A stretch of 64,000 bases of DNA from assembly GCA_964650515.1 (NCBI GenBank), contig CAZYUB010000008.1:16126-80125 (forward strand). The letters are read 5' to 3'. Each line of letters begins with the position of its first letter. Position 1 is the stretch's first letter. A model generated the notes under the pieces. The model saw only the letters and a program-made list of their open reading frames with translations, did no database searches and was not told the origin of the DNA. The stretch is from an uncultured Planctomycetia bacterium (GTDB lineage: Bacteria > Omnitrophota > Gorgyraeia > Pluralincolimonadales > Pluralincolimonadaceae). Of the stretch, positions 809 to 54,838 are shown in pieces. Position numbers and translations under genes: made by a program.

Positions 809-3800
809 TTAGCCCGTCTTCTCTTTGTAATAATCCTGGATGGCTTTCGGGGAGATCCCCTTCTTTTTTATCTCTTCGATGGCCTCTACGCTCGCGAAAG
901 CCGCCGCCATTGTGGTTATATAGGGTATCTTGTGCTGTATGGCCATTATTCGTATATAGCTGTCGTCGTATTTGCTCGTCCTGCCCGCGGGAGTGTTCAC
1001 GATAAGGTTCAGCTCCGCGTTCTTTATCAGGTCGGTGATGTTGGGCCTGCCCTCGTGCAGCTTCTTCACCGCGGTATTTTTTACCTGGTTGCCGTCGAGG
1101 AATCGGCTCGTGTTCTCCGTCGCGTAAATATTGAACCCGAGGCCCCTGAGCTTTCTCGCTATCGGTAGCAGTTCCGGTTTGTCCTTGTCGGTCACGGTCA
1201 ACAGGACATTTCCATCGAGAGGGAGCTTCGAGCCCGCGGCTTCCTGCGCTTTATAAAAAGCGAGGCCGAAGGTCTCCGCGAGCCCCATCACCTCCCCGGT
1301 AGAACGCATCTCCGGCCCGAGTATCGGGTCGACCTCGGGGAACATGTTGAACGGGAATACGGCCTCCTTCACGCCGACGTAATTGACCTTGTTCTTCTTG
1401 AGCCCGGGATAATCCTTCAGCATCTTCCCGAGCATTATCTCGGTCGCGATCCGCGCTATCGGCACGCCCATGACCTTCGATACGACCGGCACCGTGCGCG
1501 ACGCGCGCGGGTTCGCTTCCAATATATACACCTTCCCGTCGCATATCGCGTATTGTATGTTCATTATGCCTACCACTTTGAGCTCGCGGGCTATCTGCGC
1601 CGAATACTTTTCGATATCGTCGAGGTGCGCCCCGCTGATGCTCCTCGACGGTATCATGCATGCCGAGTCGCCAGAATGTATGCCGGCGTACTCGATATGC
1701 TCCATCACGGCAGGGACGAAGACGTCCGTCCCGTCGGATATCGCGTCGACCTCGCATTCGAGCGCGTGCTCGAGGAAACGGTCTATAAGCATCGGGTATT
1801 CGGGGCTGACTTTTATCGCTTCGACGGCGTATTTACGCAGCATCGTCTCGTCGTATATTATCTCCATGCCCCTGCCGCCGAGCACGAAGGACGGCCGCAC
1901 CATCAGCGGGTATCCTATCCTGTTCGCTATGAGGACGGCTTCCTCAAGCGAGCGCGCGATCCCGCTCTCCGGCTGAGGTATACCGAGCTCTATCATCTTC
2001 TGTCTGAAGAGCTCCCTGTCCTCGGCGAACGCTATGCTCTTGGGGCTCGTGCCGAGTATCCTAACGCCGCTATCCTCGAGCTCATTGGCTATATTCAGCG
2101 GCGTCTGCCCGCCGAACTGCACTATGACGCCTTCCGGCTTCTCCTTCTCATATATCGAGAGGACATCCTCTACGGTCAGCGGTTCGAAATAAAGCTTGTT
2201 AGAGGTATCGTAATCGGTGGATACGGTCTCGGGGTTGCAGTTCACCATTATCGACTCGAAGCCCGCGTCGCGCAGAGCGAACGCGGCATGCACGCATGTA
2301 TAGTCGAACTCTATGCCCTGGCCTATCCTGTTAGGGCCGCCGCCGAGTATCATTATCTTATTCTTGCCCGATACGGGAACGGCGTCCTTGCCGGGGCTGT
2401 ATGTCGAATAATAGTACGCTGCGTTCTCCACACCGCTGACCGGTACCGCCTCATATCTTGCGGCCTTGCCGAGCGCGAGCCTGCGCGCCCTTACCTCGCC
2501 CTCCTTGGTCCCGAAAAGCTTCGCGAGGTACCTGTCGGCGAAACCGAGCTCCTTAGCTTTTATGAACTGCTTGTCGGTGAGGCCTTTCCACTGGCATTTC
2601 AGCAATTCTTCTTCGAAATCTACAAGCTCTTTTATCTCCTTTATGAACCACACGCCGATATGCGTTATCCTGTGGACCTCATCCGGTGTTACTCCCTTGC
2701 GAAGCGCTTCGTATATGAGGAAGACCCTCTCGCTGGAGGGCTGCGAAAGTTTTTGCCTGAGCGTATCCGCGGAGAGCGATCCAAAATCCTTCGCCCCGCC
2801 GAGCCCGTACCTGCCTATCTCGAGCGAGCGTATCGACTTCTGGAGCGACTCCTTGAAATCCCTGCCGATGCTCATTACCTCGCCGACCGCCTTCATCTGC
2901 GTGCCGAGTATATCCTTCGCCTTAGGGAACTTCTCGAAAGCCCAGCGCGCGAACTTCACGACGACGTAATCCCCCCAGGGCTCATACTGATCGAGCGTGC
3001 CTTTCCTCCAATAGGGTATCTCGTTCATCGTGATGCCGGAGGCGAGCTTTGTCGATATGCGCGCTATCGGGAAGCCCGTGGCTTTTGAGGCGAGCGCCGA
3101 AGAACGCGATGTGCGGGGATTTATCTCTATGACGACGAGGCGGTCATCGGCCGTGTTATGCGCGAACTGTATGTTCGTCCCTCCGACCACGCCGATCGCG
3201 TCTACTATCTTATATGAATAATCCTGCATGCGTCTCTGCAGTTCCGAGGGAACCGTAAGCATCGGGGCGACGCAGAAGCTGTCTCCGGTATGCACGCCCA
3301 TCGCGTCGACGTTCTCGATGAAGCATACGGTGATCTTCCTGCCGTCCTGGTCGCGTACGACCTCGAGCTCGAGCTCCTCCCACCCTATCACGGCCTCCTC
3401 GACAAGCACCTGGTGGACAATACTGGCCGCGAGCCCGCGCGATACTATGGCCCTGAGCTCCTCGACGTTATACGCTATGCCGCCTCCGGTCCCGCCCATC
3501 GTATACGCGGGGCGAAGCACGACAGGATATTTGAGCTTCTCGGCGGTCTTCTCGGCCTCTTCGACGGAACGGCAGATCTCGGAGAGCGGAAGAGAAAGGC
3601 CCAGTTGCTGCATCGTCTTCTTGAACACTTCGCGGTCCTCGCCGCGTTCGATCGCGTCGGCCTTTACACCTATGATCTCTACGTTATATTTCTTAAGTAT
3701 GCCCGCCTTATGCAGGCTCGAGGCGAGGTTCAGGCCCGTCTGGCCGCCGAGGTTAGGCAGCAGGCCGTCCGGCCTCTCTTTTTCTATGATCCTTTCGAGG

Positions 3801-4062: not shown

Positions 4063-6276
4063 TTATTGTGATGATTTTACCACCTGCGCCCACGTATCGT
4101 CAAGCGAATACCTGCGCAGTTCTATGTTTTTCATGAAACCGAACACTTCGTCGAAGACACGTAGCGGTTTTATGACCGTCTGCTGTTTAAGCTCCGGCCA
4201 CTTTCCCGATATCTTTATCATGATACCGTCCTTGACGAAATCGAAACCGAGCGTGGCGGGTATCAGTATCTGCCTAGCCGTCTTTATCGGGCTCAGTCGC
4301 GAGACATTGGCTCCCGCGGTCATATCGACGTTCCCGGAAAAATCGCAATTTCCGGACATATCTATCTTTATCAGCGGCGACTGGCAGGCGGACCTTACCG
4401 CTATATTCCCGTCCGCCACGTCGAAGCCCGCCCTTATCTCCTTGAAATCCGGCAGCACGAAATCCTTTATTACGGAGTTCATTCCTCTCTCAACGGCGAT
4501 GAATATAGGGACCCCTTTGATGCTGCAATCGGCTATCTTCACATAACCGCCGCCTATCGCGGCTTTCGGCTGCCCGAGGACGCCCGAGCACGCGATGTTA
4601 GCGTCAAGAAGGCCCTTCATTCCCGAAAGCCGGGCGTCTTCCAGGGATAGGGATGACAGGTCGCATTTTTCAAGGTCGAATGAAAAACCCCACTTCCGGG
4701 GCGAGAGCCCCGCATCGAATCTTACTCTTGCCGCGGCCGTGCCTTCGTAAAGCGGGAATTTCGGCGCTTCACAGTCCACGAGCCCGTCCTTGACCGCCGC
4801 TTTTATAGAGAACGACTTAGGCGTCATGTCGAACAGGGTGAAATCGTCCACTTTCACGCCGGTCCTGCCGTTGAACGAAGCGGTCCGGTCAAGTTCCCCG
4901 GAAAGCGTTCCCGATACCGATGCCTTGCCTGACATCTCGCGCTTTACCAGCCCGGCCACCCTGCCGATATCCGAAAGGTCTATGTCACCGGCCATATCGA
5001 TATCGAAAACGAGCCCCTTCAGGTCGTTCGACGAGGCCTTCACCGCAAGCTTCGAGTAGGACGTGAATACCTGCAGGACCGATGAGGCCTTATCCGGGCC
5101 CGATATCTCCATATCGAGAGTGTTGCGTATGCCGCACACCTGGCCGTCGACGGAAAGCCGTTTCGGCTCCCCGAATATGAACATGCCCTTGTATGATACC
5201 GGCTTTTTGAACGCCTGGCCCTCGATATCCGATATATCCACGCCGTCTTTGTCTATGTAAGCCCGGCATTCCGCGCCGGAGACCATCACGTTCTCCCCCG
5301 CGCTTATCTCCATTCCCTTCAACACGAGCTCCGCGTAAGATACTCTCTTGCCCTTCAGGCGCTCGAACGTGTGCTTCATGACACAATCGGCGGATATGTG
5401 AAGGTCCCCATAAGTGATCTCGCCGTCCCTGAGGCCGTAAACACCCTCCATCCTGAACATCCCCGGAGAGAATGCTATATCCGCCTTGAGTTCGGCATCC
5501 CCGACCTTCAGTTCCCACGGTTTTATGAGGTCGTCTATATAGTAGCTCCAGTACTCGTTTATGTTGGGGGTATTTATCCTTATACTGCCCTTCCCGCGGG
5601 GCTCGGCGTCCGGGGAATATTCTAGCGACAGCTTCAGCGAGCCCTTCTTCGGGCCGGTCGATTTCGTCGAGAGAGCGATCCTGCTGCCGTTACCAGAGCC
5701 CGTGACGGAGACGTAAGCGATATCGTATGTCTTTTCTATAGAATTCCCGGGGACAAGGCGGTCGGAATACCTTGCTTTCCCGCCCAGGAGGCGTAGTTCC
5801 TTTACCGTTACCTGGAAGCCGCCGAAATGTTTAGACGCGTCATCCCCAATGCCCATGCTCGCAAGCGGGCCGACGTTCCATAAGCCGTCGCTGCCGCGGT
5901 ACACGTTAAGTTCCGCGTCCGTGATATCGAACCTCCTTATCGTCACGCGCTTGAAGAGCAGGTCAAGCCATGCGAGGTCTATATCGACCGCTTTCGACGA
6001 CACGATATAGTCGGACGGGGAGCCGTTCTTCGTATAAAGCCGGACATCCTTTAACAGGAAACCTGTTGCTGGCACGAAATCGATATCGCCCACGGAGACC
6101 ATCAACGGGCCGGTATTGCCCGATTCGAGGTACGCACGGACCTTAGGTATGAGGACGCGCGGGATGAATACCTTGCCGATGTACTGGCACAACAAGGCAT
6201 AGATGACCACAACCGCGGCGAGTAAATACGCGGGCCGGCGGAACCTGCCGAATATACTTTTACTGCGTCTCTCCAT
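4063..6276 (-). CDS. AsmA-family outer-membrane assembly protein (N-terminal membrane anchor, large periplasmic domain)
   Basis: 737 aa; N-terminal hydrophobic anchor (YLLAAVVVIYALL); AsmA/TamB-like composition; ends at carB. Confidence 0.6.
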   Translation of the reverse strand: MERRSKSIFGRFRRPAYLLAAVVVIYALLCQYIGKVFIPRVLIPKVRAYLESGNTGPLMVSVGDIDFVPATGFLLKDVRLYTKNGSPSDYIVSSKAVDIDLAWLDLLFKRVTIRRFDITDAELNVYRGSDGLWNVGPLASMGIGDDASKHFGGFQVTVKELRLLGGKARYSDRLVPGNSIEKTYDIAYVSVTGSGNGSRIALSTKSTGPKKGSLKLSLEYSPDAEPRGKGSIRINTPNINEYWSYYIDDLIKPWELKVGDAELKADIAFSPGMFRMEGVYGLRDGEITYGDLHISADCVMKHTFERLKGKRVSYAELVLKGMEISAGENVMVSGAECRAYIDKDGVDISDIEGQAFKKPVSYKGMFIFGEPKRLSVDGQVCGIRNTLDMEISGPDKASSVLQVFTSYSKLAVKASSNDLKGLVFDIDMAGDIDLSDIGRVAGLVKREMSGKASVSGTLSGELDRTASFNGRTGVKVDDFTLFDMTPKSFSIKAAVKDGLVDCEAPKFPLYEGTAAARVRFDAGLSPRKWGFSFDLEKCDLSSLSLEDARLSGMKGLLDANIACSGVLGQPKAAIGGGYVKIADCSIKGVPIFIAVERGMNSVIKDFVLPDFKEIRAGFDVADGNIAVRSACQSPLIKIDMSGNCDFSGNVDMTAGANVSRLSPIKTARQILIPATLGFDFVKDGIMIKISGKWPELKQQTVIKPLRVFDEVFGFMKNIELRRYSLDDTWAQVVKSSQ

Positions 6277-22267: not shown

Positions 22268-23479
22268 TTATAAGTATACTATATCATCGGGATGATACAA
22301 AGAAAGAAAAAGGAGCATGTACTCCTTCAGGTGGCGTGTTATGAGGAAATTGTTCTTCACGTGTTCCCTGCCGTTCTCGCCGAGCTTGCGCGCGTAATCC
22401 GGGCTGTGCAGCAACTGTTTCAGCGAGAAACCGGCGCCTTCTATCGAGTTGCATAGCAATCCCGAATACTTGTGCGCTATCTGGAGAGGTATCCCCCCGA
22501 CGTTCGACGCGACGACCGGTTTCGCTTTCCACAACGCTTCCGATACCGTCAGCCCGAACCCTTCCCGCAGGGATTTCTGCATTATGACGGTCGAGGCCCT
22601 CTGCAGAGCGTTTATCTCTATGTCGTTCTGCGCAAGCAGCAATATATGTATATCGGGATCGTCCTTGGCGGCCTCCCTGACCTCAAGAAGGACTTCCGTG
22701 CTCTCCGGATCGTCGGAGGCGCCGCCTCCGGCGAGCACGAGTCGGCAATCGGAGTATCTCTTCACCTGCTTGTAGACCTGTATCACCCCGAGCGGGTCCT
22801 TCAACCTGTCGAAACGCGATATCTGCGTCACTATCGGCTTGTCCTTCGGGATGCCGTATTTTTCCAGCACCGCGTCTATCGTCTCCTGCGGCAGATCCTT
22901 GTTCTTGTCGCTAAGCGGGTCTATCGACGGGGATATCAGGAACTGCCTTATCGGCAATTTTTGCGAGAACGCGGGCGCAGAGAAGACGGACGCGTCATAC
23001 TTGTCGATATAACCCCTGAGGAAATCCCACACCCTTTTATCGGGTTCGGATACGTCGACATGGCAACGCCATACCCATTTGTTGCCTGCCTTTTTGTCCA
23101 CAAGCGCTACCGGCTGGGGGTCGTGTACGAAGACGACGTCGCCGTACGTATTGAGATCCTCTATATTGCTGCGGCTTGTCTCGAGGAAGATATCGAAGTC
23201 CTGGTCGAGCAATTCGACATTGACGCCGTGGAGGGCGTTATGGAATTTCTTCGTCGCCTCGAAGAACCTCTCCCCCCCTTTGATGAAATCCCATCTTGCG
23301 TCGACACCGAGTTCCTTCAGCATCGGCACCATCCTGCTGAGTCTCTCGGCCACGCCGCCGCCCACGGATGTGGACTGTATAGTCTGGATCACCTTGCCCT
23401 TCAGCTTCTCGGCAAGGAGCCTCAGGTCGTCTATCTGCGGCTGCCCGACCACGGGTATATATTCGTCTATCTTTGCCAT
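22268..23479 (-). CDS. treT: trehalose glycosyltransferring synthase-like GT4 glycosyltransferase
   Basis: STSVGGGVAE...FHNALHG N-terminal region collinear with archaeal/bacterial TreT; GT4 C-terminal Rossmann half. Confidence 0.7.
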   Translation of the reverse strand: MAKIDEYIPVVGQPQIDDLRLLAEKLKGKVIQTIQSTSVGGGVAERLSRMVPMLKELGVDARWDFIKGGERFFEATKKFHNALHGVNVELLDQDFDIFLETSRSNIEDLNTYGDVVFVHDPQPVALVDKKAGNKWVWRCHVDVSEPDKRVWDFLRGYIDKYDASVFSAPAFSQKLPIRQFLISPSIDPLSDKNKDLPQETIDAVLEKYGIPKDKPIVTQISRFDRLKDPLGVIQVYKQVKRYSDCRLVLAGGGASDDPESTEVLLEVREAAKDDPDIHILLLAQNDIEINALQRASTVIMQKSLREGFGLTVSEALWKAKPVVASNVGGIPLQIAHKYSGLLCNSIEGAGFSLKQLLHSPDYARKLGENGREHVKNNFLITRHLKEYMLLFLSLYHPDDIVYL

Positions 23480-23480
23480 C

Positions 23481-24152
23481 TCAGGAGGATGCCCTTGTTT
23501 TAATTATGCTGACCATCCTGTTCCTCAGGCCCTCGAGCGTGAACGTATACGGGTCCAGCTGGGATATCTCCCTCGCTATGCGTTCGTCCCCTACCGAGGT
23601 CCTTATCCAGTTGGAAAAATCGTTCGTGTTCTTCTCGAGCCTCAGGCGCGCCTCGAATATGTGATAATAGATCGAATCTATGGTGACCTTGCCCAGCATA
23701 TCCGCGAATTCACCGAGGTCATGCGCGGTATATTTCGTCGATATCACGAAGCTTATCGACTTCATGAAATGGAACTCTTCGTTCTCCCCGGAAAACCTGA
23801 CTTTTGCCATCGGGTTCTTTGCCAGGTATGTTTCTATGGTCGCGGCTATCTTCTCCCTTAGGCTGCGGATAGTGCTGAACTGTACGACATCGATGCTCGC
23901 GAGCCGCTCCCCGAGTTCGTCCTCGCCGAGGACCTCGGTTACCCAATAAGCAAAATCATTCGGGGGTTCGGGCGAAAGGTACTGGTGCTGCTGCAGGAAC
24001 CTGTGCGTATGGTGATAGATGCAGGAGCCGTTGACCTCTTTGACGAGCTCGAGCAGCTGGCCGAGCGTCGATGCCCTCAGGCCGGTCAACTCGGTAAGAT
24101 GCATCCTCGTATAGAATACAAAGGGCTCTTTGGCTGTCCCTGTCTCCGCCAT
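23481..24152 (-). CDS. conserved hypothetical protein inside the trehalose operon
   Basis: 223-aa ORF packed between treT and otsB on the same strand; no known motif. Confidence 0.5.
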   Translation of the reverse strand: MAETGTAKEPFVFYTRMHLTELTGLRASTLGQLLELVKEVNGSCIYHHTHRFLQQHQYLSPEPPNDFAYWVTEVLGEDELGERLASIDVVQFSTIRSLREKIAATIETYLAKNPMAKVRFSGENEEFHFMKSISFVISTKYTAHDLGEFADMLGKVTIDSIYYHIFEARLRLEKNTNDFSNWIRTSVGDERIAREISQLDPYTFTLEGLRNRMVSIIKTRASS

Positions 24153-24156
24153 TCGG

Positions 24157-24903
24157 CTATTCCCTCTCCAGGCGCCCCGCCTGCCTTATGAACCTTATGA
24201 CTTCCTTATAGTCCTTCAGGGAATAAGCGGCCTTCGTCTTGCCCGGCCTCCCGACAAAAACCGTTATCCCCTTCTTGCCCAGCGCCGCAAAAGCGTCCTC
24301 GTCGGTAGTGTCATCGCCGATATACACCGGCAGGACCGGCTCCTTGACGCCAGCGGATGGCCGATGTTTTGCCAGCAACCACATTATGAGCTTGCCTTTA
24401 TCCCAGTCAACCGGAGGTTTTATCTCCAGCACCATCTTGCCTGTGCCTGCCTTGACCTTTCCTCCGGCAATATAACGCGCCGTCGCTTCCCTGAATGCCT
24501 TCCTGATGCGGGGAATATCCTTACGCCCCGCCAGCCTGTAATGAACGCTTAGAGTATAGCCCTTGTCTTCGAGGACCACGCCGTCTATCCCGGCCAGGCC
24601 CCTGCGCAGGTCCTGCGCTATCTTTTTTACGAGTTTACTGAAGCCTGCGGGGACAAAGCTCCTGGATTTGATGCCGGGGCCGCTGACCTCGAGCCCGTGG
24701 TTGCCGGAATACACTATACCTTTGACCCCGACCATCTTCTTTATGTCTTTAAGCGACCTGCCGCTTATGACAGCCAGCCTGCATCCGCCGTCCAGGGCCA
24801 GCCTGCGCAAGAGGCCCCTCGTACTTTTCGGGATGACCGCCTTTCCGGGGGTATCCGCGATCGGGACCAGGGTACCGTCATAATCGAGGAACAGGTATAC
24901 CAT
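24157..24903 (-). CDS. otsB: trehalose-6-phosphate phosphatase (HAD family)
   Basis: FLDYDGTL HAD motif I and IGDDTTDEDAF motif IV. Start set to the internal Met so that start and otsA stop overlap by 1 nt. Confidence 0.85.
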   Translation of the reverse strand: MVYLFLDYDGTLVPIADTPGKAVIPKSTRGLLRRLALDGGCRLAVISGRSLKDIKKMVGVKGIVYSGNHGLEVSGPGIKSRSFVPAGFSKLVKKIAQDLRRGLAGIDGVVLEDKGYTLSVHYRLAGRKDIPRIRKAFREATARYIAGGKVKAGTGKMVLEIKPPVDWDKGKLIMWLLAKHRPSAGVKEPVLPVYIGDDTTDEDAFAALGKKGITVFVGRPGKTKAAYSLKDYKEVIRFIRQAGRLERE

Positions 24904-27137
24904 TATTCTTTTTTCAATGAGGTGAGCTCCGTCACGATGCTGCCGGCCCACTTGAATACGTTGTTATCCCTCACGATATTGCGCATATTTTCCATGCGCT
25001 TCCTCTTGTCTTCTTCCGGCATCTCTATGGCCGTTTTTATCGCGTCGGAGAACTCCTCAATGGAGTAAGGGTTGATCTGCACCGCATCGGTCAGCTCCTT
25101 TGCCGCCCCGGTGAATCGGCTCAGTATCAGGACGCCGTCGAGGCTCTTGTTCGACATAACGTACTCTTTCGCGACGAGGTTCATCCCGTCGTGGAGCGAG
25201 CTTACGATGCAGATATCTGCGATAGCATAATACGGCTTTATCTCTTCCGGCGAAAAATGCTTTTTCAGGTATATGACCGGTTTCCAGTCGCCGTCGGAAT
25301 GCTTCCAGTTCACTTTCTCGACAGCTTCATCTATCTCCGCTATCAGATCGTGGTAACGTTTTATATGCGTCCTGCTCGGGGCCGCAAGCTGCACGAGGAC
25401 GAACTTCCCCTTATATTGAGGGTATTTCTCGAGGAACCTGTCGACCGCAGAGATCCTCTCGACGAGGCCCTTGGTATAATCGATCCTTTCGACGCCGACG
25501 GCCACTATCTTGCCTTTCAGCTCGAATTCCTCTTTAAGGCCGTTGATCGCGCTCATGTCCTGCTTGGCGCTGTCCTCCATGAAGCTGTCTACGCTTATCG
25601 GGAAAGCCCGGACGAACGTCTCTGACCCGGAGCGGACGATGCTGAATTTTTCCGTGTCAACTCGCGACTCAAGCAGCCTGTTGGCGGTATCAAGGAAATT
25701 ATTGCAATGGTACTGGACATGGAACCCTATCAGGTCGCACCCGAGCATCCCGTCGAGTATCTCTTTCTGGTAAGGGCATGTCGCGAATATCTCCGGGTTT
25801 GGCCACGGTATATGCCAGAAGAGCGCTATCGTCGCGTTCGGCTGCTTCTCTTTTATCATCTTCGGCAGAAGCGTAAAATGGTAATCCTGTATGAATATGA
25901 ACGCGTTTTTCGAAGGAAGCTCTTCGAGGATGGCGTCCGCGAATTTCTGGTTCACTTCTTTGTACATCCCCCAGTCCCAATCCCTGAAGACGGGCCGCGT
26001 ATGTGTTATGTGGCAAAGGGGCCATAAGCCCTCGTTCGAGAAACCGTAGTAATAACCCTGCTCCTCCTCCTTCGAGAGCCACACCCTTTTGAGTATATAA
26101 AGGTCCTCGCCCGGCGGCACCGGAAGCTTGTTCTTCGAATTCACGAACTTCCTGTCCTCGTTCCCGCTGCCATGGGCTATCCATGTGCCTCCGCACGCGC
26201 GCAATATCGGGTCTATCGCGGTTACTACGCCGCTCGCGGGGCGTATGCATTTCGTTTTGCCCGTCTCGTCTTCGCTGACATGCATATACGGTTCCCTGTT
26301 CGAGACGACATAGAGGGCATTCTCTCCGAGTTTCGCGAGTACAAGGTCCCGGAGCTTCTCCTGCGTCCAGAGCTCCTCATTCTTCAGCCGTGCCTGGGCC
26401 TCGCCCGATATGGTCTTGCGCGCTATCCTCAGGCTCAATGCTATCTGTTCCACTTCGCTGGCAAGTTTCCCGAAAGCGCCTTTCTCCTTGGTTATAGGAT
26501 GCTGCTCGTCGGTCTCTCCCTTCTGGAAACTGTGGAACCAATCGGTAAGCTGGAGTATCGGTAGTATGAAGATCTGCCTTTGCAGCATCAGCATTACGAG
26601 CGCGATGGACACAACGAGGGTTATCAAGGCCGTGCTAATATGCTTCCACAAGCCGGCCAGCGTCGTAAACACATACGACGTGTCATATATGACCTCGACG
26701 ACGCCCAGCTTGTTGTTCTCATCATCGGTTATCGGAAGGACATAACTGTATACCGAAAATTCCTTGAACTTTTCGAGCGCTCCCCTCGGTGCCCCTCCTT
26801 CCAGCGATTCCTTGACGTAGGGTTTGTCCTTATGCCCCCAGTCCGCGATACGGGAAGTTATGGAGAGTATGTTCCCGTTCCCGTCATAGATAACGCATCC
26901 CTGGAGCCTCTCCCTCTTCTGGAAACTCTCGGTGAGCCGGTTGGCCGACCTGAGGTCGTTGTTAGCAAGGATATACCTCGCGGAAAGCTCCGTGCTCTCC
27001 GCAACTGCCCTCGCTTTCCTTTGCAGGTCGTCCATGAGCTTGCCTTCCTCATAATTGACCTGCACGATGCCGAAGACGGTAAAGACCGCGGCAACGATTA
27101 TGAGTATGGGCAGTATAAAGAGAAGTACTCGCCTCAT
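24903..27137 (-). CDS. otsA: membrane sensor/HAMP domain fused to alpha,alpha-trehalose-phosphate synthase (GT20)
   Basis: C-terminal ~470 aa is a full OtsA (GLWPL, FFLHIPWP-like, LHDGMNLVAKEY). N-terminal ~270 aa has TM1, a ~140-aa extracytoplasmic domain, TM2 and a HAMP-like helix pair. Confidence 0.85.
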   Translation of the reverse strand: MRRVLLFILPILIIVAAVFTVFGIVQVNYEEGKLMDDLQRKARAVAESTELSARYILANNDLRSANRLTESFQKRERLQGCVIYDGNGNILSITSRIADWGHKDKPYVKESLEGGAPRGALEKFKEFSVYSYVLPITDDENNKLGVVEVIYDTSYVFTTLAGLWKHISTALITLVVSIALVMLMLQRQIFILPILQLTDWFHSFQKGETDEQHPITKEKGAFGKLASEVEQIALSLRIARKTISGEAQARLKNEELWTQEKLRDLVLAKLGENALYVVSNREPYMHVSEDETGKTKCIRPASGVVTAIDPILRACGGTWIAHGSGNEDRKFVNSKNKLPVPPGEDLYILKRVWLSKEEEQGYYYGFSNEGLWPLCHITHTRPVFRDWDWGMYKEVNQKFADAILEELPSKNAFIFIQDYHFTLLPKMIKEKQPNATIALFWHIPWPNPEIFATCPYQKEILDGMLGCDLIGFHVQYHCNNFLDTANRLLESRVDTEKFSIVRSGSETFVRAFPISVDSFMEDSAKQDMSAINGLKEEFELKGKIVAVGVERIDYTKGLVERISAVDRFLEKYPQYKGKFVLVQLAAPSRTHIKRYHDLIAEIDEAVEKVNWKHSDGDWKPVIYLKKHFSPEEIKPYYAIADICIVSSLHDGMNLVAKEYVMSNKSLDGVLILSRFTGAAKELTDAVQINPYSIEEFSDAIKTAIEMPEEDKRKRMENMRNIVRDNNVFKWAGSIVTELTSLKKE

Positions 27138-27138
27138 G

Positions 27139-28194
27139 CTATCGGGCCCCTTCCTGTTCGTAGTTTATCGCCCTTATCGGATACGGTATGACTATGCCCT
27201 CTTTATTATACCTCTCGTGCAGCCTCTTTACAAACTCATGTTTTATGAGGTACTGGTCGACAAACTCCTTTGCCCTCAGGATGACAGAGAAGTTTATGCT
27301 GAAATCCCCGAAGGTATGATAACGTATGAACGGCTCAAATCCGGGCAAGCCCCCGGACACTTGCTCCATGACCTCTTTCGCCACCTCGCACGTCACTTTC
27401 TCGACCTTCTTGAGATCGCTATTATAATGGACCCCGAGGTTTACAAGCACCGCCATCTCTTTTTCCGGCAGGTAATAATTCGTCGTGATCACCTGCGTCA
27501 ATTTGGCGTTCGGGACGAGGATGACATTGTTAGCCAGCATCCTTATCTTCGTGCTCCTCCAGGTTATATCGCTGACATAGCCCTCCTCCCCGGTCTCGAG
27601 TTTTATGTAATCGCCTATCTTTATCTGCCTGGCGGCAACGATATGGAAACCGGCGAACAGGTTCGAGAGCGAATCCTGCAACGCAAGCGCAACGGCAAGG
27701 CCTCCTATGCCCAAAGTGGCCAGGATAGGCGTGATCGCTATGCCGAGGTTATTCAATACAAGCAGCAGGCCGACGCCGAATATTATTATCCTGCTTATGT
27801 TCTGCGTGAGCGATGTGACCGGCAACGCGGATTCTATCGCGCTCGAACGCGAAACTATAAGCCTTGTGGCTATATGCGAAAGCGCGATCATGACCGATAT
27901 TGAACCCAGCACGAACAGCGCTTTTCCCCCGATATCAACCCACTTGGCAGGAAGCGAAGAGATCCCGAGCCCAAAATATATGCCGAGCATAAGGCACCAT
28001 ATAATGAACGGGCCTCTGGTTGCGGCAATGATTATGTCGTCTATATCGGTCTTGGTCTTGCTTGCCAAATGCAGGAAATGCCTGAATATAATGCCTCTCA
28101 ACACATAACCGAGCAAGACGGTCCCGAGGCAAACCAACGACGGAAGTATATAGGCCGCTGTACCGTTGAGATTCTGTAAAATAAGCTCCTTCAT
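27139..28194 (-). CDS. mscS: small-conductance mechanosensitive channel, MscS family
   Basis: Three N-terminal TM helices plus the conserved MscS pore and beta domains; RBS AGGAGGG. Confidence 0.85.
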   Translation of the reverse strand: MKELILQNLNGTAAYILPSLVCLGTVLLGYVLRGIIFRHFLHLASKTKTDIDDIIIAATRGPFIIWCLMLGIYFGLGISSLPAKWVDIGGKALFVLGSISVMIALSHIATRLIVSRSSAIESALPVTSLTQNISRIIIFGVGLLLVLNNLGIAITPILATLGIGGLAVALALQDSLSNLFAGFHIVAARQIKIGDYIKLETGEEGYVSDITWRSTKIRMLANNVILVPNAKLTQVITTNYYLPEKEMAVLVNLGVHYNSDLKKVEKVTCEVAKEVMEQVSGGLPGFEPFIRYHTFGDFSINFSVILRAKEFVDQYLIKHEFVKRLHERYNKEGIVIPYPIRAINYEQEGAR

Positions 28195-28235
28195 GCGATA
28201 TCCCTCCTGAAACTAAAAAAAGCGCCCTCCCGCTT

Positions 28236-28278
28236 ACACGAGATGGCGGCCCGACCATCGTAATGCCTCCCGGAGCAA
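28236..28278 (-). repeat. conserved leader module copy 1 (CTCCGGGAGG-N6-ATGGTCGGGCCGCCATCT) in the mscS 5' leader
   Basis: 19-nt core identical to the copy at 54801..54820; flanking similarity ~40 nt. Confidence 0.7.
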
Positions 28279-28304
28279 CCTATTTGCCCGGGACCCGATT
28301 ATCC

Positions 28305-28333
28305 ATTATATTGACATCGGATGGACATAGCAA
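28305..28333 (-). promoter_or_regulatory. sigma70-type promoter of mscS leader (TTGCTA-17-TATAAT)
   Basis: Hexamers and spacing. Confidence 0.5.
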
Positions 28334-47242: not shown

Positions 47243-48610
47243 CTATTTCCGCGCCGCCAAAGCTACGGCCTTCGCCACATTCTCATGCACAGCGGCATTC
47301 ATGAAGTTCGGGACGACCTCGTTCTTGCCTGCGAGCGAGGCGATCGTCTCGGCTGCGGAGAACTTCATCTTTGTCGTGATCTCCTTGGCGCGCGAATCAA
47401 GCGCGCCCCTTATGATGCCGGGAAAAGCGAGCGCGTTGTTTATGGTCCTTCCGTCGAGCGCTATAGATGCGCCGGCCTCTTCGGCCTCTTTCGGCCATAT
47501 CTCGGGAACTGGATTGGCAAGCGCGAATATTATCGGGCGCCTGTTCATCGTCTTGACCATCTGCTTGCTGACGAGTCCCGGGGCGGACAGTCCTATAAAC
47601 ACGTCCTTGCCCTTCAACACGTCCTTAAGCGCGCCTTTCTCCCTGCGCTTGTTCGTTATGCAGGCGATCTCCTTCTTATACGGGTTCATATCGCCTGCCC
47701 TGCCTTTATAAATGGCGCCTGCCCTGTCGCAGAACACTATGTGCCTGAAGCCGTATCCGAGCATGAGCTTTGCGGCAGCAATACCCGCCGCTCCTGCGCC
47801 GTTGATGACTATCTCGACCTTCTCCTTCTTCTTTCCGGTCATCTTGAGCGCTTTTATCAACGCGGCCAATATGACGGTCGCGGTGCCGTGCTGGTCGTCG
47901 TGGAAGACGGGCACCTTTACCTTCTTCTGGAGTTTCTGCTCGACCTCGAAACAAAGCGGAGCGCCGACATCCTCTATCATGATGACGCTGAACGTCTCCG
48001 CGAGGCACGCGAGCGAATCGACTATCTCATCGGCGTCTTCGCTCTTGAGCAGCAGGGGCACACAGCTTACCTTTGCCATCTTGTTCAATATTATGGATTT
48101 CCCTTCCATGACCGGCATCGCGGCTAGGACGCCTATATTACCGAGCCCGAGGACGGCGGAACCGTTCGTCGCTATGCAGACCGTGTTGCCGATCGACGTA
48201 TAGTCGCGCGCCGACGAGGGGTTGGCGACGATATGGTTACATACCTGCGCGACACCGGGCGTATAGATCATGCGCAGGTCGTTGAGCGTCTCCACTTTTA
48301 CGCGTGGCTTTACTTCGATCTTACCGCCTTTATGCAGGTTGAGCACCTCGTCCTGTATGTTCAGGACCTTATATCCCTTGAGGGTCTTTACCGCGGCTAT
48401 CGCCTTATGGAATTGCCTCTCATCGTCGAAGAACGCTATTATGTCCCTTACTATATAATTTGACGTAAGGTGTATCTTCGTGATGTCGCCCAGCGTGACG
48501 CCTTCGATGCCGAGCGCAAGCGCGAGGGTGCCGAGGGCTCCGGGGACATCCGGTATCCTGAAGCGTATCTTCTTGACGATCTTATGCGAATACTTCTCTA
48601 CTTCCGACAT
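47243..48610 (-). CDS. malic enzyme (NAD(P)-dependent malate dehydrogenase, decarboxylating) with N-terminal ACT domain
   Basis: ACT-like first 75 aa, then malic-enzyme motifs ([25 protein letters not shown]). Confidence 0.85.
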
Positions 48611-48975
48611 TTTGCAAGTATCTCCTTGACCTGTTTTACGAATTTATCGTTCGGGGTGGATTTTGATATATAGTCGAGCCCGCCTATCTTCCCGTCCACA
48701 GCCGCGACCTCTTCATCCGTGACAAGCGCGGTCAGGAACGCGACCGGGATGCCTTTCGTCTTCTCATCAAGCTTCAGGCTTTCGTGGACCCGTGTTCCTT
48801 CCACGTCCGGCATCATTATATCGAGCAGGACAAGGTCAGGCGCCTGTTCCGCGGCCATGGCCAATCCTTTCCTCGCGTCGTTCGAGGATATAACTTCAAA
48901 ACCTTCTTTCGACAGGACCTCCGTATAGAGCTTGAGCACCATCGCATCATCGTCTATCATCAGGATCTTTGCCAT
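48598..48975 (-). CDS. single-domain response regulator (CheY-like)
   Basis: DDD acidic pocket, phospho-Asp (LLDIMMPD), conserved T and K. Confidence 0.85.
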   Translation of the reverse strand: MAKILMIDDDAMVLKLYTEVLSKEGFEVISSNDARKGLAMAAEQAPDLVLLDIMMPDVEGTRVHESLKLDEKTKGIPVAFLTALVTDEEVAAVDGKIGGLDYISKSTPNDKFVKQVKEILAKCRK

Positions 48976-48990
48976 GTCCCCTCCTTAGGG

Positions 48991-50118
48991 TTAATTTATG
49001 TTTAACGGCAGGGTGAAACAAAAACGCGAACCCTTGCCCTTGCCTTCGCTTTCGAACCACATCCTGCCGCCGTGCAATTCGATGAACTTCTTGCTCAGCG
49101 GCATGCCGAGTCCGGTCCCGGCATACTTGCGCGAGTATTCACTGTCTATCTGCTCGAACTCCGAGAAGACCTTGCTCCTGTCCTTCTCGTCTATGCCGAT
49201 GCCGGTATCCGAGACGCATACGGATATCTCCTTATCTCCGGATTTGCGGGCGGTGATCCCTATCTTTCCCCCGTCGGGCGTGAACTTCATCGAGTTCGAC
49301 AGCAGGTTGAACACGACCTGCTTTACCTTCCTCTCGTCCGCCCGGATGACGCCGATGCCTTCTTCTATGCCGGTCGAGAGCGCAATGCCGTGTTTGGCCG
49401 CCTTTTCCTTAATGAATACCAGGCTTTTTTCGAGCAAGGCCTTAAGGTCGAAATCGCTTAGTTCAAGCGCCATCTTCCCTGATTCGACCTTCGAGAGGTC
49501 AAGTATATCGTTAATGAGCGAGAGCAGGTGTTTGCCGCTCTCATGTATGTAATCTATATATTCTTTTTGTTTTCCGTTCAGCGGGCCTACGCCCTCTTCC
49601 TTGATAAGTTCGGAGAAGCCGATTATCGCGTTAAGCGGCGTCCTCAATTCATGTGACATGTTAGCGAGGAACGAGCTCTTCGCCTTATTCGCGCTCTCCG
49701 CCGCCTCCTTCGCCTTCAGTATCTCCTCTTCCGCCTGCTTCAGCCGGGTTATATTGTTGCCTATGCAGAATATCTCCCTGACGCGCCCGTCCTCGTCGAG
49801 GATCGACTTATTCGTCCACGCTATCCATACGCGCGCCCCGCTGCGCTGCATGTTCTCGTTCTCGTTATTCACGTAGCTCGAAGGATGGAGCGCCATATCG
49901 TCTATCATCGCCTTGAGGTCGCGTCCGGACGTATCGGTGGGGGCTACTATCGTGCCGACGACGTTCTTTCCTATTATCTCTTCGCGCCTGTACCCGAAGA
50001 AATCCTCGGCGTACCTGTTGAAATACGTGACGTTGCCCTTCATATCCATGCGCAGGATGATGCTGTTCGCGTTCTCTACGAGGTCCTCATATTGTATTAC
50101 CGGGCCGCTCCCGCTCAT
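48991..50118 (-). CDS. cytoplasmic PAS-domain sensor histidine kinase
   Basis: PAS, then HisKA H-box (MSHELRTPLNAI), then HATPase N, G1 and G2 boxes. Confidence 0.9.
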   Translation of the reverse strand: MSGSGPVIQYEDLVENANSIILRMDMKGNVTYFNRYAEDFFGYRREEIIGKNVVGTIVAPTDTSGRDLKAMIDDMALHPSSYVNNENENMQRSGARVWIAWTNKSILDEDGRVREIFCIGNNITRLKQAEEEILKAKEAAESANKAKSSFLANMSHELRTPLNAIIGFSELIKEEGVGPLNGKQKEYIDYIHESGKHLLSLINDILDLSKVESGKMALELSDFDLKALLEKSLVFIKEKAAKHGIALSTGIEEGIGVIRADERKVKQVVFNLLSNSMKFTPDGGKIGITARKSGDKEISVCVSDTGIGIDEKDRSKVFSEFEQIDSEYSRKYAGTGLGMPLSKKFIELHGGRMWFESEGKGKGSRFCFTLPLNIN

Positions 50119-50492
50119 CCGTTTAAGTGGTCCTTTATTTTCTTTATAAGGCCTTTCGTGTCGATCGGCTTCGGTATGAAATCGTCGAACCCGGCCGCCC
50201 TTACGCGTTCCTCGTCCTCCCTCATGGCAGAGGCGGAGAGCGCGACAACCTTTACCTTACCCAGGCGGCTGTCTTCCCTTATTTTCCCGTACACTTCGAA
50301 CCCGTTCATCTTAGGCAGGTTTATATCAAGCAGTATAAGGTCCGGGACGTTTTCTTTCAACATCCCGATCGCGCCGCATCCGTCGACACAGCTTAACACA
50401 TTGAAACCGTTCATTTCAAGCAAGTCGACAGCCAGCCTCATGCTCAACGGCTCGTCCTCGACGACCATCACCGTTTTCTTAATGTCGGGCAT
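50115..50492 (-). CDS. single-domain response regulator (CheY-like)
   Basis: VEDEP...LLDINLPKMNG...KPI receiver motifs. Confidence 0.85.
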   Translation of the reverse strand: MPDIKKTVMVVEDEPLSMRLAVDLLEMNGFNVLSCVDGCGAIGMLKENVPDLILLDINLPKMNGFEVYGKIREDSRLGKVKVVALSASAMREDEERVRAAGFDDFIPKPIDTKGLIKKIKDHLNG

Positions 50493-51043: not shown

Positions 51044-52486
51044 TCAGGACAACCTTCCCAGGAGTTCCCGTAATGAAACCAGCGCTATAGCCGTCTGTTG
51101 GTCGGATAACGCGTACGGGATGATTAGCGCATCACCATGGAGTAAAGCACCGCATGAATATACCACGTTCGGGACATATCCGGAGCGGGTATCGTCCTCC
51201 CAATGGATAAGCGGCTCCTTCAACCTTCCGATCACTTTTGAAGGGTCATCGAGGTCGAGCAAAGCTGCGCCGATCGAATACTGGCACATCGGGCCGACTC
51301 CGTGGGTCAGCAGCAGCCACCCGCGGCCGGTCTCTATCGGTGAACCGCAATTGCCTATCTGCACGAACTCCCACGGGCATAAGGGCTCCATGATCGGGAC
51401 GGCTTCGTGCCAGAAATGTATATTGTCGGAATACATCAGGAAGAGCCTTTCATTATCGTTACGGGATATCATAGCATAAAGGCCGTTTATCCTGCGAGGG
51501 AACAGCGCCATGCCTTTGTTGACCGCCGCCTTGCCGTTCAGCGTGATCATTTTGAAGCGGATAAAATCTTCCGTCTCCATTATCTGCGGCAGTATTGCCC
51601 TTCCGTCATACGCCGTATAGGTGGCGTAGTACCTGCCTGTCCCGTCATCGTCCCTGAAGAACACGAAACGCGCGTCTTCCATCCCGTTCTGCTCGCTCGG
51701 TGAAAGCGGGAACAACACGCGTTCCGAAAGCGGCGACCCGCACATGAAGTCCGCCTCATAATTGCACCGGGCAAGCCAAAGTATCTTTTCGCAGGTTATC
51801 TTATCCGTATGCGCAAGCGGCTGGTGGCCGGCGATATATTCATTCGCCCTATCCTCGAGATGCCCCATCGTGAACTGGTCCTGGAGCGGCCCCGTAATGA
51901 ATCCTGAACAATCGTTTTCCAGCCCCATCTCAAAAAGTTTCCTGACAAAACATGCCTTATCGTACAGCGTATTTGGTCTCGGTTCCGCGATACAAGCGAG
52001 GCCTGAAGCTTCGTCTATTGCTACTGATCCGTCCCGGCCCGCGACTCCAGAGCGGAATGTCAGCGTGGATATATGCCCTTCACCCGTTGCGCGCAATGAA
52101 ATGATAAAACGCAGTGAACCCTCGGGGATCCCCGATTGGTCGGGGTGCGCTATAATAGACGGATTGAACAGGGCGGTTGATTCATACGAACGCTCTCCGA
52201 TGAAATATGCCCCGATAAGCAGCCTTTGCGTCCTTGATGGGGAGAAATCGGCAGGCATATGGGAACGGACGACCTCGAATTGGCGCTCGAGTATAGTTTC
52301 GAAATTATAGTGCCGCGCCGAAAAATCCTTTATTGTCTTCCCAAGCTCTTCATCCGCGGCAGGCGCGCCAAGCGCCATGACACGCGCGATTATTTTAGGC
52401 ACTCTCGACTGGTCGCCGGGAATATACGGCCTGATTATGACACGCTTGCTGTCGGGAACGATCGATACGCCTGCGTCCTTTATCAT
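51044..52486 (-). CDS. glycoside hydrolase family 130 (GH130)-like (DUF377) glycoside phosphorylase/hydrolase with ~200-aa N-terminal extension
   Basis: C-terminal GH130 signatures (YVPNVVYSCGALLHGDALIIPYALSDQQT, GSPIETGRGWLLLTHGVG). Confidence 0.7.
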   Translation of the reverse strand: MIKDAGVSIVPDSKRVIIRPYIPGDQSRVPKIIARVMALGAPAADEELGKTIKDFSARHYNFETILERQFEVVRSHMPADFSPSRTQRLLIGAYFIGERSYESTALFNPSIIAHPDQSGIPEGSLRFIISLRATGEGHISTLTFRSGVAGRDGSVAIDEASGLACIAEPRPNTLYDKACFVRKLFEMGLENDCSGFITGPLQDQFTMGHLEDRANEYIAGHQPLAHTDKITCEKILWLARCNYEADFMCGSPLSERVLFPLSPSEQNGMEDARFVFFRDDDGTGRYYATYTAYDGRAILPQIMETEDFIRFKMITLNGKAAVNKGMALFPRRINGLYAMISRNDNERLFLMYSDNIHFWHEAVPIMEPLCPWEFVQIGNCGSPIETGRGWLLLTHGVGPMCQYSIGAALLDLDDPSKVIGRLKEPLIHWEDDTRSGYVPNVVYSCGALLHGDALIIPYALSDQQTAIALVSLRELLGRLS

Positions 52487-54774
52487 TCTTCCAACGGCTC
52501 CTTGAGGCTCTCGAGGACATTTTCCATCTGCGTCATTTCCGTAAGGGATAAAAGGAACGAGAGGGTGGATTCTGCGCCCTGGTTGCGGTTCACCCTGTTT
52601 ATATGGAGGCCGTCACAGCAACCGCCCGTAACCGGATCATATAAGGAGATCCCGAGATCGTTGCTCCCGAGGAACCACTGGAAGACATTCAAGGCCTCCT
52701 CATACCACGCCTTATCCCTTGTCACGCGATAGGCGTCCAGGCATGCCGATACGGTGGAATAGGCCTCGACCGGCTGCTGGTCAAAAACGGGCTTTACCCC
52801 TCCCTTGCGGTATTCACCGTCGGTACCTACCGGCTGGAAATGGCCGCGCGGTGATGTCTGTACTTTTGTAAGCCATTTCAGGGACTCTATCCCTGACTTC
52901 AGCATCTCCGCGTTATCGAGATCGTGCCCGCTCAAAAGCAGCGCGTGGGGAAGCCTGGCGTCGCAATATGTAAGGGATTCCTCAAACCACCGCCATTCGT
53001 CGCTATTGTTTGCCTTATACAGGTCGTAAAGCCGTGACGCGAGCGTCTGCAGGCAGTTACGCGCAAGCCTGTCGCCGTGAAAACGCTGCAGGTATTCATG
53101 TATGCCGAGTAGCGTAAAAGCCCATGCCCTGGGAGATGTGAACGACAATGTGGGAGCAAGGGCCTTTTCAAAAATTTCTACCGACATCTGGGTGAACCCC
53201 TCGTTCTTGGACTGCCCTATGCAGGTACCGATAGCCCATATCGCCCTACCGTGGCAATCTTCGCTCGGCACCTCTTCCTTCCAGTTCCGCTGGAACGTCA
53301 GGAAATTCCTGAATCGCCCGGCGGACGGGTCCCACGCATACGTGACAAACCCGAGGTAGCGGCTCGCGAGGTCGTTTATCTTTACGGGATTTATCGAGCC
53401 GAGATTCTCGAGCAGGACGGCCAGGATCAGCGCGCGCGCGTTATCATCCGTGCAATAACCTTCGGAAAAATTCGGGACATTGAACGTGGCATGCTGGAAG
53501 ACGCCTATAGAATCGGTCATCCGTATCAGATGGTCGAGTTTTATATCCGGCAATACCGGATACTCGTGCTCGAGAGGGTGCATCGTTATCTTCTTCTGCG
53601 CGACAGAGGGGCGTTTTGTCTTTGCTTCCTCGAAGATCGACGCGTATTTCGACCCGGTTTTGCTCCATATCATATCGCGGCCGAGAAGATAAGCGTTCTT
53701 GCGCATCGCGTTGCGTTCATTATCATTGGCAATGAGCTTTGTTATCGCCTGGGCCGTCGCCTCCGGGTCGTTGAACGGCACGAGGATACCCCTGCCGTCG
53801 CTGAGCAGTTCGGCGGCATGCCAATACGGAGTGGAGATGACAGCGTTGCCTACCCCGAACGAATAAGCAAGCGTGCCGGAAGTTACCTGGGCCTCCTCAA
53901 GGTACGGAGTGATATAAATATCCGCGAGCACGAGCAATTCTTTAAGTTCTTCGGGAGAAACGAAATGGTTATGGAAGATCACGTTCCCGGATATCCCGAG
54001 TTCATCGCAAAGGATCTGCAGGGAAAGCCTGTAGGCCTCACCTTCATGCCTCAACAGGTTCGGATGCGTGGCGCCGACGATAATGTACACCACGTTCGGA
54101 TACTCCTTTATGACTTTCGGGAGCGCGCGCAGGACTACCTCTATCCCCTTTCGCGGCGAAAGCAACCCGAACGTCAGGATAGTCGTCTTGCCCTCGACCC
54201 CGTACTGGTCCTTATAAAAATTCGGGTCAATAAAAGACACGTCCGGTATACCGTGCGGGACCAGCCTTATCTTGGACTTTTGCGCCTTATTTACCGACTC
54301 AAGGATATCGACGGCCTTTTGCGTCATTACTATCACGCTGTCCGAGAGGCTGATCAGCTCATCCATGACACGTTTCTGGCGCGCGGACGGATTCTTCAAT
54401 ACAGTGTGCAGGGTCGTTATGACAGGCATATTCAACTGGCGCAATAAAGCCAGTATATAGCTGCCGTCGTTGCCTCCGAAGATGCCGAATTCATGCTGCA
54501 GGCAAACGACATCGACATTATTGAGGTTCAGGAAGTCCGCGGCCGCTTTATACGAGTCTATGTTCTGTTCTTTGATCTCGAAGCGAACGCGTTCAGGGTA
54601 ATCATAACCTTCCTCGATATCCGTGACCGGTATAGCGAATACCTGGACAGATGGGTTCAGGGCCGCGAACGCCTCGCAAATATCGGTGGTAAAAGTCGCT
54701 ATACCGCAGCGCCTCGGCAGGTAATTTCCTATAAACGCTATTTTTTTTATCTCGTTTGCCATTGCCCTTCCCAA
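52483..54774 (-). CDS. GT4 glycosyltransferase fused to a C-terminal ~370-aa alpha/alpha-toroid (six-hairpin glycosidase-like) domain
   Basis: N-terminal 390 aa: GT4 Rossmann pair with EX7E-like region. C-terminal domain rich in W/aromatic residues, GH63/GH15-like. Track start is TTG at 54774; ATG MANEIKK at 54762 is equally plausible. Confidence 0.7.
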   Translation of the reverse strand: MGRAMANEIKKIAFIGNYLPRRCGIATFTTDICEAFAALNPSVQVFAIPVTDIEEGYDYPERVRFEIKEQNIDSYKAAADFLNLNNVDVVCLQHEFGIFGGNDGSYILALLRQLNMPVITTLHTVLKNPSARQKRVMDELISLSDSVIVMTQKAVDILESVNKAQKSKIRLVPHGIPDVSFIDPNFYKDQYGVEGKTTILTFGLLSPRKGIEVVLRALPKVIKEYPNVVYIIVGATHPNLLRHEGEAYRLSLQILCDELGISGNVIFHNHFVSPEELKELLVLADIYITPYLEEAQVTSGTLAYSFGVGNAVISTPYWHAAELLSDGRGILVPFNDPEATAQAITKLIANDNERNAMRKNAYLLGRDMIWSKTGSKYASIFEEAKTKRPSVAQKKITMHPLEHEYPVLPDIKLDHLIRMTDSIGVFQHATFNVPNFSEGYCTDDNARALILAVLLENLGSINPVKINDLASRYLGFVTYAWDPSAGRFRNFLTFQRNWKEEVPSEDCHGRAIWAIGTCIGQSKNEGFTQMSVEIFEKALAPTLSFTSPRAWAFTLLGIHEYLQRFHGDRLARNCLQTLASRLYDLYKANNSDEWRWFEESLTYCDARLPHALLLSGHDLDNAEMLKSGIESLKWLTKVQTSPRGHFQPVGTDGEYRKGGVKPVFDQQPVEAYSTVSACLDAYRVTRDKAWYEEALNVFQWFLGSNDLGISLYDPVTGGCCDGLHINRVNRNQGAESTLSFLLSLTEMTQMENVLESLKEPLEE

Positions 54775-54806
54775 AACAAAAAACCACCTGATCTTATATC
54801 AGATGG
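54771..54806 (-). terminator. intrinsic terminator or attenuator hairpin (CCAUCUGAU-AUAAG-AUCAGGUGG followed by UUUUUUGUUUU), 12 nt before the GT4-fusion start
   Basis: 9-bp stem including one G.U pair, then a U-tract. Confidence 0.65.
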
Positions 54807-54838
54807 CGGCCCGACCATCATAAAGCTCCTCCGGAAGT
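54797..54838 (-). repeat. conserved leader module copy 2 (TTCCGGAGGAG-N6-ATGATGGTCGGGCCGCCATCT) in the GT4-fusion 5' leader
   Basis: See copy 1; here the core overlaps the 5' arm of a 9-bp terminator hairpin. Confidence 0.7.

Follow-up and report, generated by a model that had tools for sequence, protein, structure and literature searches.

Weinberg et al. 2017 described the nhaA-I motif as a candidate cis-regulatory element related to sodium (PMC5737381), and the class was later validated by White et al. 2022, who found that typical members bind Li+ and activate expression, and named them Li+-I riboswitches (PMC9646797). Their dissociation constant (KD) for Li+ is about 20–30 mM, with an approximately tenfold discrimination against Na+. 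Rare variants with an intrinsic terminator, found in that study only in Deltaproteobacteria and upstream of hypothetical genes, were named Na+-II; the representative from D. propionicus binds Na+ with a KD of about 1.4 mM, and purified RNA polymerase suffices for its antitermination in vitro (PMC9646797). Described here are two copies of a leader element in a 64,000 nt stretch of contig CAZYUB010000008.1 (positions 16,126–80,125; hereafter the window), which comes from the assembly of an uncultured bacterium (GCA_964650515.1). One copy precedes an mscS gene and the other a glycosyltransferase gene of the GT4 family. With a probability of about 0.88, both leaders are riboswitches of the nhaA-I class (the Li+-I/Na+-II family), sensing a small monovalent cation and turning transcription on.

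When the whole window was compared with the covariance models of Rfam 15, exactly two matches reached the gathering threshold, both to RF03057 (nhaA-I RNA). Copy 1 (nt 28,296–28,241, minus strand, 56 nt) scored 49.9 bits and copy 2 (nt 54,859–54,801, minus strand, 59 nt) 45.2 bits, the gathering score being 37, and in each case the alignment spans the complete model (positions 1–55 of 55). Permissive rescans matched no other riboswitch family in either leader. The DUF1646 (Na+-I) model matched neither leader, even with permissive filters and E ≤ 10, and membership of that class was rejected on this basis. A preliminary description of the window, made from its sequence, had stated that no leader with this sequence was known; this does not stand, because both copies exceed the RF03057 gathering score. 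The element is a member of a described, Rfam-curated and already known riboswitch class, and not a new peptide-based attenuator. Both copies lie on the sense strand in the 5′-untranslated region (5′-UTR) of genes of the published association list, which counts otsA (16), glycosyl transferase (5) and mscS (3) among the genes found immediately after nhaA-I RNAs (Supplementary Table I of PMC9646797). The two gene associations in the window are, therefore, already on record and, as routine Rfam annotation would label both elements, the assignment carries little weight as a discovery.

The part common to both copies is the 19-mer GATGGTCGGGCCGCCATCT, which has exactly two matches in the window (nt 28,241–28,259 and nt 54,801–54,819, both minus strand) and no further copy when up to three mismatches are allowed. 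A count of two was reached by none of 100 dinucleotide-preserving shuffles. Each copy lies in sense orientation within the 5′ leader of a gene encoded on the minus strand, with a sigma70-like promoter before it and the ribosome-binding site (RBS) after it. Leader 1 runs into mscS (ATG at nt 28,194, 351 aa), and leader 2 into the GT4 glycosyltransferase gene (759 or 763 aa, depending on whether ATG 54,762 or TTG 54,774 is the start). The putative promoter of leader 1 (nt 28,305–28,333, minus strand) has a −35 box TTGCTA (nt 28,333–28,328), a 17 nt spacer and a −10 box TATAAT (nt 28,310–28,305), giving 10 of 12 consensus matches, and its transcription start is predicted at about nt 28,297–28,300, just 5′ of the aptamer. 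That of leader 2 (nt 54,884–54,912, minus strand) reads TTGAAT, a 17 nt spacer and TATACT, with 9 of 12 consensus matches.

Alignment to the model resolves each aptamer into two hairpins, P1 and P2. In copy 1 the GGGU tail occupies nt 28,296–28,293, P1 is formed by nt 28,293–28,284 paired with nt 28,278–28,268 (U28274 is bulged), and the AGG junction and linker follow at nt 28,268–28,260. P2 consists of GAUGGU (nt 28,259–28,254) paired with GCCAUC (nt 28,247–28,242) around the loop CGGGCC (nt 28,253–28,248). Copy 2 has GGGU at nt 54,859–54,856, P1 at nt 54,856–54,830 with arms UCCGGAG.. and ..CUUCCGGA, and a P2 in which GAUGGU (nt 54,819–54,814) pairs with GCCAUC (nt 54,807–54,802) around CGGGCC (nt 54,813–54,808). 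The conserved core of the family, i.e. the 5′ GGGU, P1, the AGG junction and GGU...GCC around the CGGGCC loop, is thus present in both copies, and the P2 and loop sequence is identical to that of the P. monteilii, R. eutropha and A. caulinodans constructs. Minimum free energy (MFE) folding of the aptamers alone gives exactly P1 plus P2, at −23.0 kcal/mol for copy 1 and −19.7 kcal/mol for copy 2. The upstream hairpin of the preliminary description corresponds to P1 in the model alignment, its GGAGG Shine-Dalgarno sequence to the 3′ terminus of P1 together with the conserved AGG junction, and its 19 nt core to the P2 hairpin GAUGGU-CGGGCC-GCCAUC with the conserved loop.

Both leaders carry a competing intrinsic terminator, as do the Na+-II variants. 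In leader 1 (nt 28,215–28,247, minus strand) the hairpin GCC-A-UCUCGU/GCGGGA-G-GGC (nt 28,247–28,224; about −14.8 kcal/mol, with five nucleotides of the P2 arm paired within it) is followed by GC and U7 (nt 28,221–28,215). In leader 2 (nt 54,777–54,807, minus strand) a 10 bp hairpin, with stem GCCAUCUGAU, loop AUAAG and stem AUCAGGUGGU (nt 54,807–54,783), precedes U6 (nt 54,782–54,777). In each case the 5′ arm of the terminator is the 3′ arm of P2 (GCCAUC), so that P2 and the terminator are mutually exclusive. Folding of the full-length leaders favours the terminator, by 4.2 kcal/mol in leader 1 (−35.8 with the terminator versus −31.6 kcal/mol with P2 enforced) and by 7.7 kcal/mol in leader 2 (−31.2 versus −23.5 kcal/mol). 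Several elements of the preliminary description are confirmed by these results: the same leader on two unrelated genes, the identical 19 nt core and its ability to pair with itself, the sigma70-like promoters, and the hairpin and U-tract immediately before the RBS. The first hairpin does have compensatory palindromic arms, which differ between the copies yet remain complementary (CCCGGG../..CCGGG in copy 1, UCCGGA/UCCGGA in copy 2). Folding both leaders in search of mutually exclusive structures, which the same description had recommended, yielded the P2 and terminator alternatives in each, and its broader proposal, a cis-acting transcription-attenuation leader common to two unrelated genes, agrees with this layout.

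The leaders most likely switch on salt-stress genes by blocking a transcription terminator. Transcription would begin a few nucleotides upstream of the aptamer, and P1 and P2 would fold first. With a cation bound, P2 would be held and its 3′ arm made unavailable, blocking the terminator and allowing RNA polymerase to read into mscS-otsA-otsB-DUF5752-treT (copy 1) or GT4-GH130 (copy 2); with no cation, the more stable terminator hairpin would take the GCCAUC arm and transcription would end at the U-tract. That these two copies bind a ligand, and which ligand, is inferred by analogy with the family. Ion-dependent antitermination with purified RNA polymerase has been demonstrated for the D. propionicus Na+-II RNA, which has the same exclusive aptamer/terminator layout (PMC9646797), and the same competition between P2 and a terminator has been described for Na+-I riboswitches (PMC9337991).

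Relatives were sought in genome collections and in metagenomes. The pattern used for the genome collection, GGGTCCN{8,38}GGAGGN{6,20}YCGGGCCGC, proved too loose: 116 of the 120 loci listed are chance matches in high-GC genomes, and four survive a pairing filter. These are found in metagenome-assembled genomes of Nitrospirae (L050), Thermodesulfobacteriota (L089), Coriobacteriaceae (L006) and Verrucomicrobiia (L108); the first three bear a terminator, and the Nitrospirae example also has an identical P2. The stricter metagenome scan (GGGTCC..GGAGG..TGGTCGGGCCGCCA) recovered at least 120 relatives with the signature GGGUCC...GGAGG...UGGUCGGGCCGCCA. A terminator hairpin with a U-tract that overlaps the 3′ arm of P2 was detected in at least 49 of 122 listed relatives, a lower bound, as the detector missed L141, in which the terminator is clear. 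Covariation was assessed in a gap-free alignment of the anchored P1 and P2 segments of 117 distinct sequences, in which 94.8% of cells are paired, compared to 29–58% when the partners are slid. Cells with changes on both sides number 199, against 49 ± 12 in shuffles, and none of 500 shuffles reached 199; the inner four pairs of P2 and the two basal pairs of P1 are fixed by the search pattern, which leaves four P1 pairs and three P2 pairs as the source of the signal. P1 and P2 are supported by compensatory changes among the relatives. Some metagenomic contigs carry two aptamers of the same subgroup: L184 has two (nt 734–783 and nt 4300–4347, both minus strand), and L197 has a divergent pair about 150 nt apart (nt 1461–1510, plus strand, and nt 1258–1307, minus strand). 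Paired aptamers within a few kb fit a multi-operon regulon, as do the two copies in the window.

The preliminary description had preferred a ribosome-mediated attenuator, in which a mini-open reading frame (ORF) beginning MVGPPS is translated from the internal GGAGG and AUG, and an EF-P-dependent stall on Pro-Pro occludes the 5′ arm of the terminator. The geometry lends itself to this, since GGAGG lies 6–7 nt upstream of AUG in both copies, ATG, GTG or TTG is found at the NUG position in 118 of 124 listed instances (ATG 85, GTG 26, TTG 7, with CTG in the other 6), and a ribosome on the Pro-Pro codons would cover the 3′ arm of P2. The mini-ORF itself, however, is not bounded, as neither copy has a stop codon after Ser: the frame from ATG 28,258 is 107 codons long, crosses the terminator and enters mscS in a different frame, and that from ATG 54,818, 23–24 codons long, passes both the terminator and the GT4 start. 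Among the 124 listed instances the ORF at this position lacks a conserved stop and varies in length between 5 and 734 codons, the encoded peptides are unrelated after (M/V/L)VGPP, and the frame sometimes merges with the downstream gene. Nor is a start codon always present, validated members of the family having CAG (P. monteilii), CUG (A. caulinodans) or UAG (D. propionicus) there, and L089 and L006 are also among the members with one of these codons. No third codon position varies, the changes in the stems are all compensatory, and a family member controls termination with purified RNA polymerase and ions alone (PMC9646797); together these point to constraint at the RNA level. Within the aptamer the GGAGG and AUG serve as paired or junction nucleotides, and their resemblance to a translation start is incidental to the consensus of this subgroup. 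With neither a bounded ORF nor conservation of its length and peptide, the leader-peptide attenuator was rejected as very improbable, and the stalled ribosome finds no place in the covariation of P1 and P2 or in the antitermination achieved by RNA polymerase alone in a relative. The fallback offered in the same description, that nucleotide identity reflects a role of RNA structure, is the one borne out by the RF03057 match and the covariation. Still less probable is a dispersed repeat of the repetitive extragenic palindromic (REP) type, or a DNA operator for a palindrome-binding protein. The palindromic 6-mer arms (CCCGGG, TCCGGA) and the identical core are what such an element might show, but the 64 kb contain no more than two copies, each of which precedes a gene in the sense orientation, sits within the promoter-to-RBS interval and exceeds the threshold of a structure-aware model. 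In addition, the P1 sequence changes freely across relatives while pairing is kept, which is the signature of an RNA and not of an operator. The repeat or operator was accordingly rejected on copy number, position and covariation.

Some observations weigh against the nhaA-I assignment or do not strengthen it. The linker after AGG has C/A in the window copies where all four tested aptamers have AGGUU; the two nucleotides following GGAGG vary among the relatives listed (UU in only 16 of 124). The leader folds are not significantly more stable than those of shuffled sequences (z = −0.8 and −1.0); such unremarkable scores are usual for short riboswitches and lend the assignment no support. Finally, the signature is mixed, the U at ‘position 54’ being the Li+-I state, and the terminator and P1 base the Na+-II state. 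This position, read from the published construct sequences as the nucleotide immediately 5′ of CGGGCC, is C in the D. propionicus RNA (AGC-CGGGCC), where most nhaA-I RNAs have U (PMC9646797), and its equivalents in the window are U28254 and U54814. A strictly Li+-selective Li+-I riboswitch, sensing toxic Li+ and inducing trehalose synthesis and MscS as a response to Li+ toxicity, is one way to read the U: in the closing U of P2 and in the loop the copies do not differ from the three validated Li+-selective aptamers (GGUCGGGCCGCC), the RF03057 model was built mostly from Li+-I members, and a link between Li+ and trehalose was raised by PMC9646797 itself. The P1 base GGGUCC..GGAGG and the terminator, however, match the Na+-sensing D. 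propionicus RNA and not the Li+-validated GGGUGC..GCAGG type. The C54U change broadened the specificity of the D. propionicus RNA, the mutant (M4) having responded to Li+, Na+ and NH4+ (PMC9646797), and the window aptamers, with U54, the GGGUCC/GGAGG P1 base and a terminator, show the same combination as M4. The genes also differ from those expected: among the first downstream ORFs of 100 listed relatives, otsA and mscS are frequent and nhaA is scarce (12 GT20 and 4 MscS, compared to about 8 cation/proton exchangers, DUF1646 proteins and related transporters). In the published family about half of the first genes are nhaA or other antiporters (PMC9646797), and the apparent shift of the relatives toward osmoadaptation genes is large, though the sample is not an unbiased one. 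Given that the controlled genes serve osmoadaptation (trehalose synthesis, MscS), that Li+ is naturally scarce and that the combination is M4-like, the physiological trigger is probably Na+ or a broad Na+/Li+ response; strict selectivity for Li+ is rather unlikely, and a trigger of any other kind is improbable. Taking the Na+ or broad-cation reading further, the terminator-bearing aptamers with U54 and the GGGUCC/GGAGG base may, tentatively, represent a distinct and environmentally abundant nhaA-I subgroup that senses Na+ or the total load of small cations, and not Li+, and runs an osmoadaptation regulon of OtsAB plus TreT trehalose synthesis and MscS, with the GT4-fusion/GH130 pair, by association, forming a salt-induced glycoside (compatible-solute) pathway. 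The relatives are further evidence that nhaA-I aptamers combining a terminator with the Li+-type U are frequent in environmental DNA and accompany trehalose and MscS operons.

The genes following leader 1 are all on the minus strand and, from their tight spacing and overlaps, are probably co-transcribed (operon 1, nt 22,268–28,208). An RBS (AGGAGGG, nt 28,208–28,202) precedes mscS (RBS and gene, nt 27,139–28,208), the product of which has the Pfam domains MS_channel_1st, 2nd and 3rd, while the MscS models of NCBIfam are its best matches but fall below cut-off. Next come a gene for an OtsA-like trehalose-6-phosphate synthase of 744 aa (nt 24,903–27,137) with an N-terminal extension of about 270 aa, otsB specifying trehalose phosphatase (nt 24,157–24,951), a gene for a DUF5752 protein (nt 23,481–24,152; E = 1e-69) lying between otsB and treT, and a TreT-type trehalose synthase gene (nt 22,268–23,479). 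This content fits a salt or osmotic response. Homologs of OtsA, MscS, OtsB, DUF5752 or TreT occur within 6 kb downstream of the aptamer in 32 of the 122 listed relatives, 23 of these having a detected terminator, and the operon 1 gene set follows the same riboswitch in, for example, L133, L148, L187, L138 and L224. L133 carries a near-ortholog of the whole leader and operon 1, with 77.5% DNA identity across both. The N-terminal 270 aa of the OtsA-like protein (nt 26,328–27,137, minus strand) are conserved in relatives, with full-length alignments (q1–744), and show weak Cache-like matches (dCache_3, E = 0.002) and a faint WalK-like match; the extension may represent a membrane or sensor domain joined to OtsA. 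DUF5752 is co-conserved with otsB and treT downstream of the riboswitch in L138, L148, L178, L187 and L224, which links the domain to trehalose metabolism.

Leader 2 is followed by a gene for a GT4 glycosyltransferase fused to a C-terminal domain of about 360 aa (nt 52,483–54,762/54,774, minus strand) and by one for a GH130-domain protein with an N-terminal extension of about 250 aa (nt 51,044–52,486, minus strand), together designated operon 2. One ortholog of the GT4 operon, with the same riboswitch and terminator, is carried by L141, and its protein begins MANDIKK..., which supports ATG 54,762 as the GT4 start. Neither the C-terminal part of the GT4 protein (nt 52,486–53,565, minus strand) nor the N-terminal part of the GH130 protein (nt 51,737–52,486, minus strand) has a Pfam match at E ≤ 1. 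In a PDB sequence search the GT4 protein returned GT4 folds, and its C-terminal part weakly resembles 7tem, the ‘putative exported protein YPO2471’ (E = 1.3e-9). A literature search found no direct link between GH130 and compatible solutes. With two sugar-metabolism operons of one genome most likely under cation-riboswitch control, each probably belongs to a salt or osmotic response, which provides a functional hint for the unannotated GT4-fusion/GH130 pair as well as for DUF5752. Beyond GT4-GH130 and an AhpC/TSA-like gene, the minus strand (nt 48,598–50,492) encodes a response regulator, a PAS histidine kinase and a second, receiver-only protein.

Elsewhere in the window, a 113 nt intergenic stretch (nt 62,343–62,455, minus-strand reading) is 87.6% identical to nt 322–434 of L141, an unrelated metagenomic contig in which the match lies just upstream of the promoter of the riboswitch-GT4 unit; synteny is otherwise lost. 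It includes a promoter-like site (TTGATA-17-TATAAT) and has complementary ends (GGAAATCCCTCTC/GAGAGGTTTCC), and is followed by CCCCGATC-ATAA-CGATCGGGG-T6, a terminator-like hairpin at about nt 62,283–62,310. The stretch matched no Rfam family, giving only weak, terminator-driven matches (E ≥ 0.036), and may represent a conserved promoter/operator or a small RNA. No rRNA or tRNA was found in the 64 kb window, and a search for contigs that encode the MscS protein returned none.

In comparison with known systems, the leaders resemble trp/his-type attenuators and polyproline/EF-P stalling leaders in having a leader terminator and an SD-like sequence and AUG upstream of Pro-Pro codons, but they lack a bounded, conserved leader ORF, what is conserved is RNA structure, and the family works in vitro without ribosomes. 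Na+-I riboswitches (DUF1646 motif, PMC9337991) have a similar two-hairpin architecture, a terminator competing with P2 and ON-switch logic, and some control osmoprotectant synthesis; they differ in that their model matches neither leader at E ≤ 10 and, according to the authors, in the lower part of P1 and the loop of P2. The Na+-II RNA of D. propionicus (PMC9646797) shares the terminator 5′ arm drawn from the P2 3′ arm, the GGGUCC...GGAGG P1 base and the transcriptional ON switch, although its diagnostic C 5′ of CGGGCC is U in the window (U28254, U54814), and the published variants come from Deltaproteobacteria, where the genes they precede have no known function, whereas the genes in the window are identifiable. 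Most Li+-I RNAs (RF03057) are thought to control the RBS while the window copies use intrinsic terminators, and the copies also differ from the tested Li+-selective RNAs in their C-G, C-G P1 base (GGGUCC/GGAGG rather than GGGUGC/GCAGG), in a linker lacking AGGUU and in preceding osmoadaptation genes rather than nhaA. With the same class they share the full-length model match, the GGGU tail, P1, the AGG junction and the GGU-CGGGCC-GCC core of P2, as well as the 5′-UTR position, the ON-switch logic and the published downstream genes (mscS, glycosyl transferase and, within the operon, otsA).

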